DNA of 62,818 bases from a virus (Duplodnaviria; Caudoviricetes), in the IMG/VR virus record IMGVR_UViG_3300030329_003652, positions 1 to 62,818 of that record; one strand, given 5' to 3'. Numbering within the stretch: the stretch's first letter is position 1; every line of letters begins with the position of its first letter. Of the stretch, positions 9,127 to 33,048 are shown piece by piece. The translations under genes were made by a program, and so were the position numbers. Below the pieces are notes generated by a model. That model had not been told where the DNA came from. It searched no databases and saw nothing but the letters and a program-made list of their open reading frames with translations.

Positions 9127-10365
9127 ATGGTTGATGAAAAAACTGACAGTAAACCAGTATCAGATGAGGAAATAGAGGAAGAGACTGATATTGTTGATGC
9201 TAGAGTAGAGAAAAAGAAACCAAGATACCCATCAATAGGTGAGAAATTAAGAGATGGTCAAACTGATTTTAAAACTTTAAAGAGGAAATGGCAGAAAACC
9301 AAAGTTGACAATGTTGGACAAAATTGGACAGAGGAAATTAAGAATACTGGTGAGCAACGCAGTATGAGAGAGAAAGATGGTACAGGATATGGTGATTTGA
9401 TGACCACAAATGTTATGCCATACAATGTAAATACTGATTCTGAAACATATATTGGTTCTCCTGAAGATGATAAAAACGATAAAGAGGATGATAGCGAAAC
9501 TTATATACAAGAAAACGCAAAGAAAACTATGACGGACTTAAATAAATTGACACACACACGCATAGGAGATCACATAAACTTCTACCAAAATGGTGTTCAA
9601 GATAACGGTGTTATAGCAAAAATGAATGGTTCATTCATAACAATATTCAAAGAAGATGGTTCATTCAAAGACATTCACATAAATGATACATTTTTCGTAA
9701 GCGATATATTGGTAGATAAAACATGGAATGATATGAACATGGAAGAGAGAACAGAACAGTTACTTAAAGTCAAAGCATTTTCCCCTAGATTCTTAGTAAA
9801 GACATGGGAACAATTACCAGAAGAATTGAGACAAGTATTACACAAAGGAAACGTAGTATATGGTGCAGATACATCAACTTTTGGGGGTAAACAAAGAGCA
9901 CTTCATAGACAATCACATGCTTTACATAATAGAACTGTAGAAAGTGGTGGTAGAATAGGCAATAAAAAAATTAATCCAAAACACACATTTGCACAAGATC
10001 AGAAAGAGTTTAAAGATCCATACTCTAGACAAGATGAATCGTTAAAATCTGATCAAGAGCAAGGAGCATACGGTAACATTGGTGGAAGACCAAATGTAGG
10101 TATATCAACCGACACAGATATTGATGCACCAGAGGATTATGAGGGTAACTCACATGATGATATTCAAGTTGAAAATCAATTCCAACATGATGCAACTACA
10201 CCAAAAACTGATGAAGATCCAGAGACTAAGAAAGCAGGTGACTTTACATATTCAGAGAGAACCGACTATAAAACTAAAGGAGTTCCAGATTATAATATAA
10301 ACACTTGGGGTATAAATTACTCAAAGGATACCAAAAAACATATAAAGGATAATAAGGAAGATTAG
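9127..10365 (+). CDS. acidic low-complexity protein, possible internal head polyprotein
   Basis: D/E/K-rich; shares a 20-aa peptide with the prohead protease C-terminal tail. Confidence 0.5.
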   Translation: MVDEKTDSKPVSDEEIEEETDIVDARVEKKKPRYPSIGEKLRDGQTDFKTLKRKWQKTKVDNVGQNWTEEIKNTGEQRSMREKDGTGYGDLMTTNVMPYNVNTDSETYIGSPEDDKNDKEDDSETYIQENAKKTMTDLNKLTHTRIGDHINFYQNGVQDNGVIAKMNGSFITIFKEDGSFKDIHINDTFFVSDILVDKTWNDMNMEERTEQLLKVKAFSPRFLVKTWEQLPEELRQVLHKGNVVYGADTSTFGGKQRALHRQSHALHNRTVESGGRIGNKKINPKHTFAQDQKEFKDPYSRQDESLKSDQEQGAYGNIGGRPNVGISTDTDIDAPEDYEGNSHDDIQVENQFQHDATTPKTDEDPETKKAGDFTYSERTDYKTKGVPDYNINTWGINYSKDTKKHIKDNKED

Positions 10366-10367
10366 GT

Positions 10368-11474
10368 ATGAGTACATTACAAGATATAAATAATATTTTA
10401 GATTCTATAACCAAGAAGAGGACAGCTCATGGTAGTGAAAAAACTAGACTTGCAGCACAAGAGAGGGAGAGAGCAGCATTTGAAGCAGATAATCCAGAAC
10501 ATATAGGTACAAGTATTAGAGATACCAAAAATATGCCAGTACCTAAAGTAGTAAAACAACCTGCAATACCTAAACCACCTAGTCCACCTAAACCACCTAA
10601 AGAAAAGAAAGAAACTAAGGGAACTAAAGGTACAAAGGGAACTAAAGGTAAAGGAAAAGGTACAGGTAAAAAAGGTGCTAAAAAAGTAGGTACTAAAAAA
10701 GTAGGTACTAAAAAAGTAGGTACTAAAAAAATAGGTAGTTATAAAGATGATGTAGCAGCAACTAGAAGAGCAGTATTAGGTGAGAAACGAAACACAAGAG
10801 GTTCAGGTAAAATAGGTGTAGCAAGATCAGATCCATTTAGTTCAGAAGCAAGAGCTGGTGGTACAAAGAAGAGAAAAACAAGAAAGAAAAAGCGAAAAGC
10901 ATCAGGCAAAGTAGGATTAACAAAATCATTAGACTCAATTCAAGGCTTCTTACAAGCAGCAATTATATTAAAACGTGGTGCAGATGCAGGTGTTGGTGGC
11001 TATGCGACAGGGGATCAAGTAACAAGACTTACAGGTGTTAATACAAACACAGCAATGAGACAAACTAAACCTAAAGAGGGAAACATTAGAGGTACAGTAA
11101 GAGAAGTTGAAATTCCTAAGAAAGGAAAACACTCAAAATTAATTGATGCTATTAGTGATGCATCAACAATAAATCAAAGTTCTGGAAAAACAGATATTTT
11201 GTTGACTTCTGAATTAAATAAAAATTTCAATGGATTACTAGATGCCTATCAAGACAGATGGGTAAATAAACTAGAGTTCAACGCTGATGGTTCTGCTAGA
11301 AGAGGTAAAACAGGCAAAATTATTAGAAACCAAAAAGGAACTAAGAAGAACCCAGATAATAAACAAACAGATTTTCCAGTAGTGTCAGCACGAGATGCAG
11401 ATGCAGCAAATCAAGCAAAACAAAGAAGAGCAGAACTAAATCGTGAACGTGTTGTACAAGAAAAACGAGATTAA
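10368..11474 (+). CDS. highly basic K/G/T/P-rich protein, possible DNA-condensing internal head protein
   Basis: PKPP, TKG and KKVGT repeats and K/R runs. Confidence 0.5.
   Translation: MSTLQDINNILDSITKKRTAHGSEKTRLAAQERERAAFEADNPEHIGTSIRDTKNMPVPKVVKQPAIPKPPSPPKPPKEKKETKGTKGTKGTKGKGKGTGKKGAKKVGTKKVGTKKVGTKKIGSYKDDVAATRRAVLGEKRNTRGSGKIGVARSDPFSSEARAGGTKKRKTRKKKRKASGKVGLTKSLDSIQGFLQAAIILKRGADAGVGGYATGDQVTRLTGVNTNTAMRQTKPKEGNIRGTVREVEIPKKGKHSKLIDAISDASTINQSSGKTDILLTSELNKNFNGLLDAYQDRWVNKLEFNADGSARRGKTGKIIRNQKGTKKNPDNKQTDFPVVSARDADAANQAKQRRAELNRERVVQEKRD
10678..10737 (+). repeat. 15-bp tandem repeat x4 (CTAAAAAAGTAGGTA; last copy has 1 mismatch)
   Basis: Directly visible; encodes KKVGT repeats. 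Confidence 0.9.
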
Positions 11475-21990: not shown

Positions 21991-22284
21991 ATTTTCAATA
22001 TAAGTTAGTACTTCTTCACCAGTAGAAACTATTACTGGTATTTTTTTGTATAATTGTGTTTCATATCTGTCTAATCTTTCTAAGTCTAATGCACTAACAT
22101 CAAAAATCTTACCTTCAACTTTTTTTGACATATTTCTTCTTATTGTAGGATAAATATAGAAATGACTATGTGGTATTTTTTCATAACCTAATAAAACTGT
22201 TGATTTTCCATCTATAAACCTTCCAAGTACTTTTTCTCTAATATCATCATCTAATAGAGAACCATAAGTGAATATTTTAGTCAT
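21982..22284 (-). CDS. gamma-glutamylcyclotransferase (AIG2/GGCT-like)
   Basis: IFTYGSL, YP, VEGKIF, LDRYE...Y motifs. Confidence 0.9.
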   Translation of the reverse strand: MTKIFTYGSLLDDDIREKVLGRFIDGKSTVLLGYEKIPHSHFYIYPTIRRNMSKKVEGKIFDVSALDLERLDRYETQLYKKIPVIVSTGEEVLTYIENSS

Positions 22285-22442
22285 TTTTAACCCTTTCTGA
22301 TACTATTTGATGACATCTTTCACATAAGTCTAATTTATCGAATTTTTTAACATTTTCTTCTGATAAACAGATATGACAAATCATATTGAATGTTATATAC
22401 AACCTAATTTAAGGATTTCGCTTAAAAAAAACCCTATTTTTG

Positions 22443-22492
22443 AAAAAAAGTTGTGTACAGATTTTATGGGCAATAGCCCACACACATACAAC
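22443..22492 (-). terminator. hairpin plus U7 terminator after the vWA gene
   Basis: Minus strand GUUGU-AUGUGU-GUGGGC-UAUU-GCCCAU-AAAAUCUGUAC-ACAAC-UUUUUUU. Confidence 0.65.
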
Positions 22493-22515
22493 GTGAGATA
22501 CGGATTGTAATGATA

Positions 22516-24348
22516 CTATCTTTTCATTACTCTAATAATTTCTTTCTTGAGTGTACCAGTAACATATTTACTGACATCTCTCATAGTTCTACATCTTGTA
22601 TATCTCTTGAACATTTCTTGCATTGTCCAATCTCCATACACATCACCGACACCAACCACTGCTATGTTAGGTGTGACCTTTAATGATTTTTTATAAGATT
22701 TGATTGTTTCTTTTGCAGTTACATCTCTTCTTATTCTTACACCATTCTTCTTGTAGTTTGGGAAGCCATCAGTGATAACAATCAATAGTTTCCTACGACC
22801 TTTCATCTTTGATAATTCTTGAGAACCCATCTCAATACCAAAGTGTGTTGGGGTATATCCACCATCTTGTTTGTCGAGATACTTTATATCTTCCATGTTA
22901 TTGTATCTCTGTATTCTCATGTTTCCTTTTCTGTCAGATGACCATGTGATACATTTTATGTCTATGTTGTTTGTTCCCTTTGTAGCTTCCCACAAAGTTG
23001 CAACAAGTTGTTTGACAATATCATTATGTCTAACCATACTTCCAGAAGCATCAACACTTAAACATATTGACAATCCATTATCGGCTACATCTTTTACAAA
23101 AGATTCACCATAACCATTAGCCTTCATGTTTATGTATCCTTCTATGTCTACCTCACTTCCCTCTTCAGCCAGTTGTCGTTTAGTCCTCTCTTTAAACATA
23201 CGAAGTATGTGTGAGATTTCTTTAACAACTCTCTGGTCAATCATTGGTGCTCTTGCAGAGTCGTCACGTTTAATAGGTTTCTCTCTTACAAAAACTGGGG
23301 CTACTGGTATTGCATCAGAACCTTGCATGTCCTCTCTTATTGCAGAAACTTTTGCATTTGCTCTGTCTTCTGAATCTGCCAATTCAGCTTCGTAACCTTT
23401 AACATCATCAGGGTTTGCACCGAGTTCTAAATCAGTGTAGTCCTTGACATCTTTAAGTCTCTCAGCATCTCTTGCACTACCATGTCCATCTTCTTGTAGA
23501 AAGTTATCATTCCTATTAACATCTCTGAATGTTTCCTTTCTGATTTCTCTATCAGTTTGGTAAACTTCTTCTTTGGCTTCAGCATGTTTCTTAAGTTTCT
23601 CTGCTCTTTGCTCAGCAGTAGAATTCCTATCAGATAGGTATTCATCATTCAATGCTTTGCATTTCTTCATTGCTTCATCACGTTGCTTCATTTTCTTAAG
23701 AGTTTCATCTATCTTCTCATCAAGATATGGTTTTATTTTTCTCAACACAACCATTGTTGCTTTAATATCCTTATGCTCTACGTCATGAAGATATTTTGAG
23801 AGAAAACCATACTTTGATTTCTCAACATAATCAGTTCTAAAGAATCTTTCAGCTAGTAGTACCAATGATGGGTGGTCAATATAATCTAGTTCTTTACCCA
23901 AATTCTTTCTCACTTTGATAAAGTCTCGGACATTACCTAGATATATTCTACCCCACAATGATTCTATTCTTTGGTCTTCAATAACATTCATTGCTTCTTG
24001 GTATATCTTATATGCTATCTCGTAATCCTTGTCCTTTTGTCCAACATCTGACCATTTCAATGCCCATCGCTCCAATGTTTTCATTGCTCTGTCATCAAAA
24101 GAGTCAAAGAGAATATGTGCCAGCTCGTGGTTTATGGCAGAGTTGCCATCTATACCTTTGAGTTTTGGCTTGGATTTCTCTATCGTGAATCCTTTCTTAG
24201 TCTTCCAACATATATTCACACCCTTTCTGTATTCAACAGTAATAGGTACGTTCTTTAGTTGGCTTACTATACCTGCTTTCTTTCTGTCATAATCCTGTTC
24301 CGACAAGTAGTCGGTAGTGTCAAGACTTACGTCATTGAACTTTACCAT
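22516..24348 (-). CDS. vWA-domain partner of MoxR ATPase (CobT/NorD-like)
   Basis: HELAH..IEDQRIE N-domain; MIDAS DASGSM, TP, ITDG. Confidence 0.85.
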   Translation of the reverse strand: MVKFNDVSLDTTDYLSEQDYDRKKAGIVSQLKNVPITVEYRKGVNICWKTKKGFTIEKSKPKLKGIDGNSAINHELAHILFDSFDDRAMKTLERWALKWSDVGQKDKDYEIAYKIYQEAMNVIEDQRIESLWGRIYLGNVRDFIKVRKNLGKELDYIDHPSLVLLAERFFRTDYVEKSKYGFLSKYLHDVEHKDIKATMVVLRKIKPYLDEKIDETLKKMKQRDEAMKKCKALNDEYLSDRNSTAEQRAEKLKKHAEAKEEVYQTDREIRKETFRDVNRNDNFLQEDGHGSARDAERLKDVKDYTDLELGANPDDVKGYEAELADSEDRANAKVSAIREDMQGSDAIPVAPVFVREKPIKRDDSARAPMIDQRVVKEISHILRMFKERTKRQLAEEGSEVDIEGYINMKANGYGESFVKDVADNGLSICLSVDASGSMVRHNDIVKQLVATLWEATKGTNNIDIKCITWSSDRKGNMRIQRYNNMEDIKYLDKQDGGYTPTHFGIEMGSQELSKMKGRRKLLIVITDGFPNYKKNGVRIRRDVTAKETIKSYKKSLKVTPNIAVVGVGDVYGDWTMQEMFKRYTRCRTMRDVSKYVTGTLKKEIIRVMKR

Positions 24349-25281
24349 CTACATTGTCACCCCAAATATCTCGTTGATTTGTTTCTTAACCAACTCTCGT
24401 TGTGCAGGTTCACTAAACTTTGATAGTACAGCATTTTTTATACTGCGTTCAAGAGGTTTGTTCAACTCGGACTGTGACCACATTCGGTAACAATCTGCGA
24501 ACTGTACCAAGTCTCTTGGTGACAAAGAGTAGTCAACATCTGAATTAATTCTCAGATTATGTATGTTCTGAGTTAATGTCAGCATTGGTTCTACAACAGT
24601 TTCCTGTGGTACACCATCCCATGAAACTATACGTTTCAAGTTGTCGCTGTTTGGGTATTCCCAAATTGCTCCAATGAATCTACTCTGTGCATCTTCTGTA
24701 AGTGTGTTCACACCTGCATAAGTACTGGGGTTCATAGTAGCGATTACAGATAACCTGCAATCTTCAGGCAAACTATACAGTTTACCGTTTGCAACAATAG
24801 CTTTCCTATCATCAGTGACAGGGTTTGTTGCCTTTTGCATCTCATGTGTCATGGCATTGAACTCGTCAAGATACAATACCCCTCTCTTGAATTTCCTTAC
24901 TACTTCAATAGCAGTAGGCAATACTCCAAGTTGGAAGTACGAACCAAATTCATTTATCTGTGGTCTTCCTATCAAGTCACCTATTCTTGTTCCTTCTGAA
25001 CAATTAAGTGAGATGATTGGAATGTTATGTTTCACACAGATGTTGTGAACAAGTTGTGTCTTTCCTAATCCTTTGTCACCTTCAATGAGATAGTTGCCAC
25101 CTTTTAAGATGACATGTTCAAGCTCATCTGCTTCATCAGTAAGTTGTACATAATCAACTCCCCACTTTCGAGGAAGATAATTATCGAAGTCAATTTCTGC
25201 AGTTGGAACTTTGTACACTCTAGGTGTATCAGTTTTTTCATTGGTCTTTATAGACTCAATGAATTCTTGTTTGTCAGTCAT
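24349..25281 (-). CDS. MoxR-family AAA+ ATPase (CobS/CbbQ-like)
   Basis: GDKGLGKT, LYLDEFN, ATMNP, SRF, SPRDL. Confidence 0.9.
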   Translation of the reverse strand: MTDKQEFIESIKTNEKTDTPRVYKVPTAEIDFDNYLPRKWGVDYVQLTDEADELEHVILKGGNYLIEGDKGLGKTQLVHNICVKHNIPIISLNCSEGTRIGDLIGRPQINEFGSYFQLGVLPTAIEVVRKFKRGVLYLDEFNAMTHEMQKATNPVTDDRKAIVANGKLYSLPEDCRLSVIATMNPSTYAGVNTLTEDAQSRFIGAIWEYPNSDNLKRIVSWDGVPQETVVEPMLTLTQNIHNLRINSDVDYSLSPRDLVQFADCYRMWSQSELNKPLERSIKNAVLSKFSEPAQRELVKKQINEIFGVTM

Positions 25282-30939: not shown

Positions 30940-31605
30940 CTATCTAATCCTTCTAGCAGGTGCATCAGTATCGAGAGTATCTAATGATTGTTCGGCATCA
31001 TAGTATATCTCTGACCAGAAACTTCTATCAGCACGTACTCGTTTAGCTATTTCATCAAAGAGTTTAAACTGCTCTTGAATGTTATAACTTTGTCTTGCGT
31101 ACCACTGATGACATACTTCTGACATACTAGTCAAGCAATTATTAACAAATTCATCTATCATCTCTTGCGAGAATGGTTTACGTGGGTTTATGAACACCCA
31201 ACCATGTTTTATAAATGATTTGTGACCTGCCCAATTAAGATGACTTCTAAACGTATCTCTATCAGGTGAACCACTAAATAGATAGTCGTCATCCCAATAG
31301 TCAATATTTAACAGTCGTCTAAACGTGCCTGTCTCATGTTGCATGACTCTGACAATCTTCCTTAACTTTTTATTACCCATGAATAGAATACCCCAAGTAT
31401 CATACCGTTTAGTAGGTTTAAACACTACTGACTGTAGATATGGGTTTTCATGTGGCATTTCAAAGTATCTTAGACCTAATTGACTCATTATCTTTGGTCG
31501 ATAATAGCCAAGCCTAGGAAGCTCGTCATCATTATTACGCCAAGCCAATATAGATTGTCTTACGTAATCCTGCTCGAAATCATTAACTTGCGTTAATAAG
31601 TTCAT
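30940..31605 (-). CDS. hypothetical protein, first large gene of the cassette
   Basis: 221-aa aromatic-rich ORF. Confidence 0.6.
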   Translation of the reverse strand: MNLLTQVNDFEQDYVRQSILAWRNNDDELPRLGYYRPKIMSQLGLRYFEMPHENPYLQSVVFKPTKRYDTWGILFMGNKKLRKIVRVMQHETGTFRRLLNIDYWDDDYLFSGSPDRDTFRSHLNWAGHKSFIKHGWVFINPRKPFSQEMIDEFVNNCLTSMSEVCHQWYARQSYNIQEQFKLFDEIAKRVRADRSFWSEIYYDAEQSLDTLDTDAPARRIR

Positions 31606-31901
31606 TAAAAAATAGGCTACCTATCTGTAGCCTTGATGGGAAGATATTGGTTAGAAGCATCTAACCTACGGTTTGCATTATCATCACGAAGCACTGACCA
31701 AAAGCCATGCTCGCAACGATATTTATACCACTGTGAATACCTCTTACAGTAGCCACAATCACATAAATTACTCATTGTAATATTAACAAAACGGATATTG
31801 CTGTAGAACATACTGTAATATTAACAATATGCACTATATTACGTACCCTTCTTGCTTGTTGTTTGTTCATCTTAATGTTTTATATGTCACATTTTTGATT
31901 A

Positions 31902-31943
31902 GGGGCAAGTAGTTCACACTACCTGCCCCATACGTATATAAGC
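31902..31943 (-). promoter_or_regulatory. TATA-like element plus 11-bp inverted repeat at the cassette start
   Basis: Minus strand CTTATATA followed by GGGGCAGGTAG-TGTGAA-CTACTTGCCCC. Confidence 0.5.
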
Positions 31944-32000
31944 CTTGCTCAGATTTTTCTGAATACAAGCGTTTTTACGTCTTACGTGACGGTTAATCAT

Positions 32001-32475
32001 AAAAAATAAGGGGTAGGGTATGACAGTCGTATTTCTACCGTCGCCATACCCAATCCGTATCTCTGTTCCAGTAGACAGTTATAGCTATTGCTAGCCTTTC
32101 CTACCTACTGTGTTGTATGTGTGCCTGTGGCTATTGCCGTTGAATCAGTCTAAGGTGTTTAAACCCTGAAATCATAGCTAGCACTAAAACTATGACCGAC
32201 CTCATATTTTGTAAATCCTAACATTCACTAGTACAGATAGAGCACGCTCAAGGCGATGGTTATTCTTCATTCTTTAGCAAACTGGAAGTAAACTTAGTTA
32301 TGTTTAGGCATAACTCAATCTACGACCTCGTAGAAATCCGAACCACTGTACGTTCAGAGACCTGCCCCCTGAGGGGTGGGTGTCTTACACCATACCTACC
32401 ATCCCATTTCATTTAACGGTTCATGAGCAATTCCACAGTGTACCGTGCCTGAGATAGTGAGTCAGGTACGCATGG
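32001..32475 (-). ncRNA. candidate large structured ncRNA (~470 nt), family unknown
   Basis: No ORF of 60 aa or more. Many hairpins; G-U pairs favour the minus strand; GCAA and GAAA tetraloops; 3' hairpin followed by U6. Boundaries approximate. Confidence 0.65.
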
Positions 32476-32657
32476 AAAAAAAACGGTTTTTGGAAAATCG
32501 GTGGCTACGATTCGGAAAAAATTAGATACAAATTAGAACCCTATTTAAATACAATTAGGACATAATATCTTCCTAGTATCCTTTATATAGGAGTTCGAGG
32601 AGAGACAATTACTACATAATCCAGTAGTACGTAATCGGTGCTTTTTTTGCCAAAATT

Positions 32658-32816
32658 TTAATCTGAACATCTGTCAATACATTCCTTTATAATCTTAAGC
32701 CTGTATGTATTCTCAGGGGTGGTAGGTTCTTTACTCACACGTTCATAAACTCGTTCAAAGTCTTCGAGGTGCTTTTTTCTTAAAGGTTCGTCATCAGGAT
32801 ACATTTCCCAAGGCAT
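32658..32816 (-). CDS. 52-aa hypothetical protein (not in ORF track)
   Basis: MPWEMYPDDEPLRKKHLEDFERVY...; CTTATATA ~25 nt upstream. Confidence 0.55.
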   Translation of the reverse strand: MPWEMYPDDEPLRKKHLEDFERVYERVSKEPTTPENTYRLKIIKECIDRCSD

Positions 32817-32847
32817 ACTATATATTAATATACAACATATATAAGGC

Positions 32848-33048
32848 TTACGACGTTCTATAATATTTAACTTGACATTCCTTAGAACAATATTTACGGT
32901 TGTTATTATTTTGTGTCTTTATATATAAAGAGGGGTGATTACACTGTTTACACACAAGAGATACAAATACATTATCTTTCATATTATCTTGTCCTTCTAA
33001 AGTCTTCATTATGGCAAGAACATCTACAGTGTTTATCACATGCTGCAT
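32848..33048 (-). CDS. small zinc-finger protein
   Basis: CKQC...YCSKEC. Confidence 0.55.
   Translation of the reverse strand: MQHVINTVDVLAIMKTLEGQDNMKDNVFVSLVCKQCNHPSLYIKTQNNNNRKYCSKECQVKYYRTS

Follow-up and report, generated by a model that had tools for sequence, protein, structure and literature searches.

What is encoded in the longest stretch without open reading frames (ORFs) of a gene-dense viral genome, and what might its product do? The question arises at positions 32001–32475 of the IMG/VR virus record IMGVR_UViG_3300030329_003652, all 62,818 nt of which were analysed and are referred to here as the window. An original prediction made from the letters alone described this segment as a single, highly structured non-coding element of about 470 nt, read from the minus strand and belonging to no recognised family. 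The analysis reported here indicates that the locus is very probably a genuine gene for a structured RNA belonging to a new family, and points more tentatively, with a chance approaching even, to a product that acts in trans as an antisense or guide RNA. By a crude gene call the segment does lie in the longest ORF-free stretch of the window, a gap of 1036 nt when ORFs of at least 60 aa are counted and of ~730 nt when a 41-aa zinc-ribbon ORF (32545–32670) is taken into account. The only two ORFs of at least 30 aa within 32001–32475 (38 aa on the plus strand and 30 aa on the minus strand) have no matching frames in the relatives.

Homologues of the element were gathered with the help of a neighbouring protein, from matches to two DNA patterns, and in a single scan of metagenomes; four lineages carry the RNA. 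Lineage A comprises the window together with L149 and L141, which are ~99.9% identical; lineage B comprises L133 (the same record as L151 and L156), L139 and L150; and lineage C comprises L004 (with the same or overlapping records L003, L012, L014, L143 and L155) and a cut copy, L002. Searches with the element using nhmmer recover lineage B with E-values of 4e-26 to 5.2e-28 and lineage C with 1.9e-22. Lineage D (L185, L189 and L190) was found by profile searches and with a model of a conserved 3′ hairpin, P3′, which it carries. The element is 51–55% identical among lineages A, B and C, the portal proteins of which are 87–88% identical, and the protein encoded downstream of it is only 24% and 18% identical between lineages. 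A blastn search with the element found no match in a phage collection. A search with the neighbouring 221-aa protein found no relatives in viral contigs, and its three orthologues are too diverged (24% and 18% identity) to serve as a search seed; the portal protein was used as a handle, with 80 of 376 relatives taken. A 14-nt pattern was too unspecific, matching at least 119 stretches among which only two already-known contigs were related, and other candidates were discarded as well: L013 is a chance match in GC-rich sequence, 12 of 18 metagenome stretches are unrelated (mostly one unrelated gene, the remainder being chance matches), and L152, the sole stretch from a genome contig, shares a 22-nt pattern only. 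Over all lineages, structure-aware and MAFFT alignments did not reliably align the middle of the RNA.

Hairpin P3′ (32069–32110, minus strand) has a 10-bp lower stem, an internal loop GAAA/AUAA, a 5-bp upper stem and a GCAA loop. A covariance model of it (R1) matches only in lineages A–D among 90 sources (804,002 bases). Across its four distinct sequences 92.9% of the cells are paired and 7 of 15 pairs have changed on both sides; none of 500 shuffles was as good on four of five measures and one was on the fifth, and slid controls are 23.6–48.2% paired. One G·U pair is kept in all four lineages and another pair alternates between U-A and U-G. Because these wobbles would be C·A mismatches on the other strand, they favour the minus strand, the strand that had been chosen from wobbles at the outset, and close variants likewise differ by exchanges of G·U and A-U. 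Thus L185 and L190 differ at 7 of 538 positions, and these differences include two double compensatory changes (C-G to U-A and G-C to A-U) and one of G·U to A-U, with at most one pair broken. Variants within lineage B show exchanges between G·U and A-U, including in a hairpin named P6, and changes at unpaired positions.

The predicted non-coding RNA body occupies 32003–32386 on the minus strand (~384 nt), with its start (±3 nt) placed 22 nt after a TATA-like box and its 3′ end within a T-run at 32001–32006; in relatives the RNA is roughly 330–530 nt long. Folding z-scores of the body are −2.26 in A, −3.25 in B, −4.47 in C and −2.75 in D. The four lineages have their layout in common: first comes a 5′ hairpin, then a long arm ending in a hairpin whose loop contains CUAA, then middle hairpins that vary, and lastly P3′ and the terminal hairpin. 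The 5′-terminal hairpin H1 (32360–32381) has stable counterparts of unrelated sequence in the other lineages, and in all four it begins no more than a few nt from the predicted start. The long, irregular arm is capped by P5 (32296–32315), a 7-bp hairpin with the loop CCUAAA. On separate folds, without a formal pair count, P5 takes up body positions 72–91 in A, 61–82 in B and 66–85 in C, with unrelated stems and with the loops CCUAAA, CCUA and CUCUAA. Hairpin P6 (32211–32228), with the loop GUUAGG, is present in A and B; its stem is weak in C, and it was rejected as a hairpin common to A–C. On either side of P3′ is a linker with blocks antisense to a distant site in the genome (described below): the 5′ linker (32112–32138) is mostly unpaired in the centroid fold and holds two blocks (32129–32138 and 32112–32123), and the 3′ linker (32051–32063) holds a third of 13 nt. 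The RNA closes at 32001–32051 with a terminal hairpin (32016–32051), a C-rich stretch and the T-run, the last two like other gene ends of the window. A stable hairpin of different sequence precedes the T-run in each of A–C, whereas the fold of D has no more than a weak closing stem of 4 bp. Between the tip of the terminal hairpin (32027–32038) and a segment just after the 5′ hairpin (32330–32341) there is an inverted repeat of 12 nt (92% complementary), which could be a long-range contact.

Over the full 475 nt the minus strand folds at −140.5 kcal/mol, compared with a mean of −124.4±6.4 for 100 dinucleotide shuffles (z −2.50; 2 of 100 as good), and the opposite strand does about equally well (z −2.01; 3 of 100 as good). 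Fold energy alone is therefore modest, suggestive rather than decisive, and does not choose the strand. The local stems listed at the outset are all present in the minus-strand sequence, and most are within the minimum-energy fold: these include CGUACCUGA/UCAGGCACG (with one A·C mismatch), CCCC/GGGG, AGUUAUG/CAUAACU, the UCAUAGU/GCUAUGA region, GCUA-GCAA-UAGC, and the terminal stem GGGUAUGGCG/UGUCAUACCC with GUA-GAAA-UAC, after which comes the T-run. The family is likewise still unrecognised. Rfam 15, which includes GOLLD, ROOL, HEARO, OLE, RNase P, SRP RNA, group I and II introns and riboswitches, has no match at gathering score in the window, nor in 10 related loci (127,695 bases). At E≤10 the region 31500–33000 gives four chance-level matches (13.9–20.7 bits, compared with thresholds of 45–65), three of them partly or wholly outside the RNA. 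ARAGORN predicts no tRNA or tmRNA gene in the window.

Which transcription signals should be expected depends on the host. The window is classed as a virus record, and the material comes from marine samples. In the phage collection, all 8 records that its portal protein matches are haloarchaeal tailed viruses (23% identity). Among its other products is an MCM helicase (Pfam MCM, 9.2e-74), for which all 15 tblastn matches listed (the best 15 of 20) are viruses of archaea, and there is also a RadA recombinase that scores above its NCBIfam cut-off (290.4 bits, compared with 259). Because the portal is nearest to those of haloarchaeal viruses and both MCM and RadA are present, the window is, judged from its proteins, an archaeal tailed virus and not a bacteriophage. 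It is therefore no phage in the bacterial sense first supposed, and the likeness drawn to the bacterial phage RNAs GOLLD and ROOL is beside the point for an archaeal host. Promoters are accordingly read as B recognition element (BRE)/TATA boxes and terminators as oligo-T runs; a scan for sigma-70 promoters and intrinsic terminators was set aside as not meaningful for an archaeal virus. By eye, about 10 of 38 upstream regions taken from the crude gene call have a C-rich stretch and a T-run followed by RRRG-TTTATATA, with the ATG 21–25 nt further on, and the hexamers TATATA, TTATAT and TTTATA are ~4–6-fold enriched in the upstream regions of the window. The spacing of 21–25 nt from box to ATG indicates that the genes of the window have archaeal-type promoters and leaderless mRNAs.

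Signals of this type are arranged in order upstream of the RNA on the minus strand. The first is a T8 run (32476–32483), kept in related loci, which is read as the putative oligo-T terminator of the upstream small-gene unit containing the zinc-ribbon ORF. The second is a conserved block (32431–32475) of CCATG, ~27 variable nt and ACACTGTGGAA. A profile search of related loci recovers this block from 29 sources, which yield 21 distinct sequences, and in every case it is located upstream of a portal gene on the opposite strand; it occurs in 17 of the 18 loci among L153–L231 with at least 4.5 kb upstream of the portal match (L230 is the one without it); in the window it is unique. It is probably a regulatory DNA site of the promoter of the RNA; an origin is a less likely reading. 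The third is a BRE/TATA-like box at 32409–32422, placed by alignments, which reads GAACCG + TTAAATGA in the window and GAAATG or GAAGTG + TTATATRT in relatives. The full order is T-run, CCATG, ~27 variable nt, ACACTGTGGAA(AT), GAAATG or GAAGTG, and directly TTATATRT. A BRE/TATA-like box precedes the RNA in most lineages, and in A, B, C, L205, L172 and L176 an insertion of 13 nt before the box brings a new GAA.TG directly next to it. This box is the putative promoter of the RNA; transcription would begin ~22 nt after it, probably near 32386, and would probably end at the hairpin, C-rich stretch and oligo-U run (32006–32001). The ~90 nt before the start would thus consist of DNA signals, namely the terminator of the preceding genes, the conserved block and the promoter. 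In L177 a 117-aa ORF starts 134 nt after the same block (by eye, there may also be an ATG 20 nt after the box), and the block is therefore separable from the RNA. Of the ~470-nt element first described, the conserved and structured minus-strand non-coding RNA stands, but the 5′-most ~90 nt have the character of DNA with a promoter or regulatory role.

The locus is represented in RNA (metatranscriptome) libraries. Contig X5 covers 32044–32388, contig X8 covers 32110–32348, and a third contig extends from 30000 or below to 32320 at a depth of 343, compared with 3.6 in the DNA run of the same sample. The end of X5 lies 2 nt from the predicted start and none of the three contigs reaches the upstream block, which is a weak hint, absence of RNA cover (e.g. 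at 32389–32500) being no evidence by itself.

A possible role is suggested by complementarity between the RNA and a distal site in the same genome, a feature new relative to the original prediction. The site (22469–22507, minus strand) is made of three collinear exact blocks of 10, 12 and 13 nt: body positions 249–258 equal plus-strand positions 22469–22478, 264–275 equal 22481–22492, and 324–336 equal 22495–22507. The three matches stand side by side on the opposite strand, and the site is a condensed copy in which P3′ is skipped; its location on the opposite strand makes the RNA complementary to transcripts of the same direction. The site begins 9 nt after the stop (22516–22518) of a gene for a VWA-domain protein (22516–24348) and ends ~20 nt before two T-runs, and from this position it is read as the 3′ untranslated tail of an operon (22516–25281, minus strand) in which an AAA_5 (MoxR-like) ATPase gene is followed by the 610-aa VWA gene (Pfam AAA_5 and VWA). 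In all four genomes A–D the longest exact match of the RNA to another part of its own genome is on the opposite strand and at most 1.3 kb downstream of the VWA gene, 8–11 kb from the RNA. It is 14 nt long in B (body 227–240) and in C (body 212–225), and consists in D of 17 and 14 nt flanking a 66-nt hairpin. The blocks are lineage-specific in sequence, but they end 0–5 nt from P3′ in A, B and D and overlap it by 2 nt in C, and the linkers that hold them are mostly unpaired in the centroid folds of A–C. The duplexes formed by the two linkers of A have predicted energies of −40.6 and −25.0 kcal/mol (the latter for the 3′ linker), and those of B, C and D have −29.5, −29.3 and −35.8 kcal/mol, respectively. 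Collinear chains score 35 in A, where shuffles attain at most 23, and 31 in D, where they attain at most 30; neither score was reached by any of 200 shuffles. Beyond the distal site, the RNA shows no further complementarity above shuffles to the rest of the genome.

In the mechanism proposed here, the exposed linker adjoining P3′ would act as an antisense guide and would pair in vivo either with the tail of the transcript from the AAA/VWA operon or with the beginning of the unit that follows. P3′ would serve as a structural or protein-binding handle beside the duplex, and the outcome would be altered termination, stability or translation of the transcripts at the distal site. An accessible stretch complementary to a transcript made elsewhere, as expected of an antisense RNA, is found in A–D, with exact blocks of 12–17 nt. 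Trans-encoded antisense small RNAs are known from bacteria and archaea, and antisense RNAs from archaeal viruses such as phiH, and it is the trans-encoded class that the RNA appears to resemble most in its mode of action: it has its own predicted promoter and terminator, an accessible stretch complementary to a distant mRNA, and structured modules beside it. Unlike these small RNAs, it is several-fold longer (330–530 nt) and has many conserved hairpins, its target is in the same viral genome, and the pairing is split around a hairpin in A and D.

Several observations weigh against this account. Some concern the RNA gene itself: the TATA-like box of the window, TTAAATGA, is weaker than the consensus; the opposite strand of the A body folds as well as the RNA strand (z −2.61); the covariation comes from only four lineages, in a P3′ alignment fitted to the model; and the RNA contigs are strandless, one of them running through the terminator into the downstream genes and none having a true 5′ end. 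Others concern the pairing. Chain scores as high as those of B and C were reached by 39 and 103 of 200 shuffles and are not significant genome-wide, and exact matches of at least 14 nt occur in 10 of 40 (B) and 8 of 40 (C) shuffles. A targeted test, which looked for antisense matches of the 45-nt linker in the 2 kb that follow the VWA stop, was equalled by 3 (A), 0 (B), 4 (C) and 0 (D) of 1000 shuffles, but was framed after the hits were known, so that the counts are post hoc and overstate independence. The context of the site varies as well. In A it is the VWA gene's 3′ tail. In B it spans codons 5–9 of a zinc-ribbon ORF of 34 aa, in C it makes up the opening 14 nt of a frame of 26 codons that lies 24 nt after a TATA box, and in D it directly follows a terminator and a TATA-like run. 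A further lineage, E (the L171 record, with both regions present), has no clear match, its longest being 12 nt and elsewhere; the L168 record is without the VWA region. Finally, the same pattern could be an inverted repeat at the DNA level.

This last possibility is part of a rather unlikely alternative, in which the structured RNA is real and the complementarity is an old inverted partial duplication or a set of recombination repeats, the RNA itself working by its fold, as a scaffold for protein binding or as a decoy while the virus infects, e.g. against a host defence or an RNA-binding protein. Such a role fits a body that evolves fast under a conserved promoter, as in arms-race loci (51–55% identity vs 87–88% for the portals), and fits the unrelated ORF-poor cargo of 400–770 nt that other lineages carry behind the same block. 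The conserved loops and the GAAA/AUAA internal loop resemble binding sites, and both the lineage-dependent site contexts and the missing match in lineage E also speak for it. A passive remnant should decay, however, yet exact blocks of 12–17 nt persist while the RNA genes are ~50% diverged, which disfavours it; moreover, the blocks always adjoin P3′ and have the same orientation in 4 of 4 genomes, and no recombinase was found among the 33 proteins scanned (not every ORF).

A variant of the guide proposal is that the RNA belongs to an RNA-guided system of archaeal viruses, with P3′ as a handle for a viral or host protein and the linker directing it to an RNA or DNA site, at present the tail of the AAA/VWA operon. 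Were this unlikely variant true, the promoter block and its variable cargo would be a cassette for exchangeable guides, and guide and site would change together. The RNA is like CRISPR RNAs and C/D-box or H/ACA guides in that a lineage-specific, guide-like stretch adjoins a conserved hairpin with a purine-rich internal loop, and in that two hairpin-flanking stretches pair with one continuous target in A and D. Unlike them, it has no repeat arrays, no family score near threshold and, in B, no ACA after the stem. There is no CRISPR array at 31900–32700, where only two 2-copy families of direct repeats of 10–16 nt occur, and a search for C/D-box or H/ACA guide RNAs gave a best snoRNA-type match of 20.7 bits, compared with a threshold of 55. 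An H/ACA guide was rejected by eye, as the internal loop of P3′ is a symmetric 4×4 loop and no bulge of 3 nt, and as the stem is followed in B by AGA instead of ACA.

It is also improbable that the block and the iteron-like repeats beside it form a replication origin, with the RNA as a primer or activating transcript, much as RNA II acts in ColE1 plasmids or as R-loops act at origins of phage T4. The genome has a single copy of the block, which is far better conserved than the sequence on either side of it and is preceded by two to three direct copies of TTGTAT..TTTTTTCC ~22 nt apart as well as by A-run and T-run tracts; it may bear some likeness to archaeal origin boxes, which flank an AT-rich region where unwinding starts. 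The virus encodes an MCM helicase and so needs an origin, and the minimum of the cumulative GC skew is 2–3 kb away, near 34–35 kb. The skew tracks gene orientation, though, and turns at a divergent gene boundary rather than at the element. The central part of the block is not AT-rich, and the BRE/TATA reading accounts for the most conserved part. The covariation in P3′ and the compensatory changes between close variants show selection on the fold, which a mere primer would not need. Like ColE1 RNA II, the RNA is a structured transcript of a few hundred nt with a promoter beside a unique conserved DNA block; it differs in having no antisense RNA I counterpart, a fold under selection, and complementarity at a distant site.

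The version first put forward, in which the whole 475 nt is one RNA with a long-range switch, is very improbable. Its 5′ block is the best-conserved part, a UCCAUG/UGUGGA helix is possible in 19 of 19 sequences, lineage C by eye has one U-A to C-G change in the first stem, and in B, as in A, a 7-nt stretch could by eye compete with the 3′ arm of P3′. RNAalifold of the 19 block sequences gives only −2.09 kcal/mol, however, with the invariant UCCAUG/UGUGGA helix alone and 0 of 6 pairs changed on both sides, and several lineages by eye have no hairpin in the block. A single RNA would have the T8 run, an archaeal terminator signal, at its very start and a BRE/TATA-like box inside it; it is at odds with L177, in which the block is followed within 134 nt by the 117-aa ORF, and with the RNA contigs, none of which extends past 32388. 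The first of the listed stems is not conserved across the 19 related sequences. The three long-range pairs on which the switch depended are absent from both the minimum-energy and the centroid folds; those of CACUGU and GAUGGU lie upstream of the predicted start, with partners that are not at conserved places in B and C. Competition between a CAGUU stretch (5–7 nt) and the 3′ arm of P3′ is conceivable in A and B but not seen in C. Resting on non-conserved pairs, the switch is unsupported.

That the locus is a functionless, fast-evolving spacer or decayed gene with chance hairpins would suit the modest energy z-scores, equal on both strands, but is hardly credible given the covariation of P3′, the compensatory changes in close variants, and a conserved layout with conserved transcription signals and no conserved ORF.

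On the reading preferred here, of a new structured RNA gene with a proposed antisense role, the RNA shares with GOLLD and ROOL, RNAs of bacterial prophages held in Rfam, the character of a large structured RNA gene borne by a virus, but it gives no covariance-model match, is smaller, and has an archaeal host and archaeal transcription signals. To our knowledge very few structured RNAs are known from archaeal viruses, and this one would add a new family with a testable fold. The locus would also illustrate cleanly how promoters and terminators of archaeal type are laid out in a tailed virus of marine archaea, and it offers a hypothesis, concrete enough to check, that an RNA guides the control of a distant viral operon, with guide and site changing together between lineages. 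The parts of the literature brought up by searches describe no such RNA for uncultured tailed viruses of marine archaea. A catalogue of ~10,000 short candidate RNAs from IMG/VR (PMC10690425) may contain pieces such as P3′.

Downstream of the same promoter block, five other loci (L172, L193, L205, L171 and L167) have ORF-poor stretches of ~400–770 nt that are not alignable with the RNA of A–D and often end in CCUACC..UUUUUU(G)CUAAU. These may be other RNA cargoes of one cassette. The block, found in at least 29 related contigs, marks this variable cassette and gives a means of finding more viral RNAs in metagenomes. Immediately upstream of the T-run and block (32484–32545, minus strand), a motif resembling TTGTATCTAATTTTTTCC(C)GA is repeated directly two to three times at a spacing of ~22 nt; the copies are iteron- or operator-like and are kept across lineages (L133, L004 and other loci), with only one full copy in the window. 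The upstream motif TTTGTATCTAATTTTTT was rejected as a repeated promoter, having 5 matches with up to three mismatches in comparison with 2.1 expected, and only one here. On the other side of the RNA, ~60 nt after its T-run, a second BRE/TATA-like box (AAGG + CTTATATA, ~31935–31946, minus strand) is followed directly by an 11-bp hairpin (GGGGCAGGUAG...CUACUUGCCCC; 31902–31942, minus strand), the source of a chance-level mir-17 match. This second box and a GGCAGGUA hairpin recur in lineage B.

Two small conserved genes lie directly upstream of the RNA on the minus strand. The first (32545–32670) encodes a protein of 41–49 aa with a CxxC...CxxC zinc ribbon and the second (32658–32816) one of 45–52 aa with an HLEDF motif; their lineage B counterparts are at 9947–10096 and 10084–10221 of L133. 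Neither has a family match in protein-family scans, and both products are candidate partners of the RNA. Further upstream, a 66-aa ORF (32848–33048, minus strand) has weak likeness to the C-terminal part of phage HNH endonucleases (PHROG 15471, E 1.6e-05) and is possibly a remnant.

At the distal locus the AAA-ATPase/VWA pair receives no name from NCBIfam. The VWA protein is 46–53% identical in 4 of the 9 related records searched, the other five being fragments (19–55% complete). The GC content of the window is 0.34 overall (0.30–0.39 per 2-kb window), and this low value together with the AAA/VWA pair is reminiscent of viruses of marine ammonia-oxidising archaea, which are candidate hosts. Just downstream of the distal site, and 21 nt after a CTTAAATT box, is a small zinc-ribbon ORF (22282–22384, minus strand) that reads MICHIC...LDLCERC in A; in B (L233) the 34-aa ORF with the 14-nt match at codons 5–9 reads MVCNIC...LCVEC. 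Elsewhere in the window, three tandem copies of TTAGTACCTACTTTTTT, 15 nt apart, are situated at 10680–10726 (minus strand) within the ORF 10368–11474.

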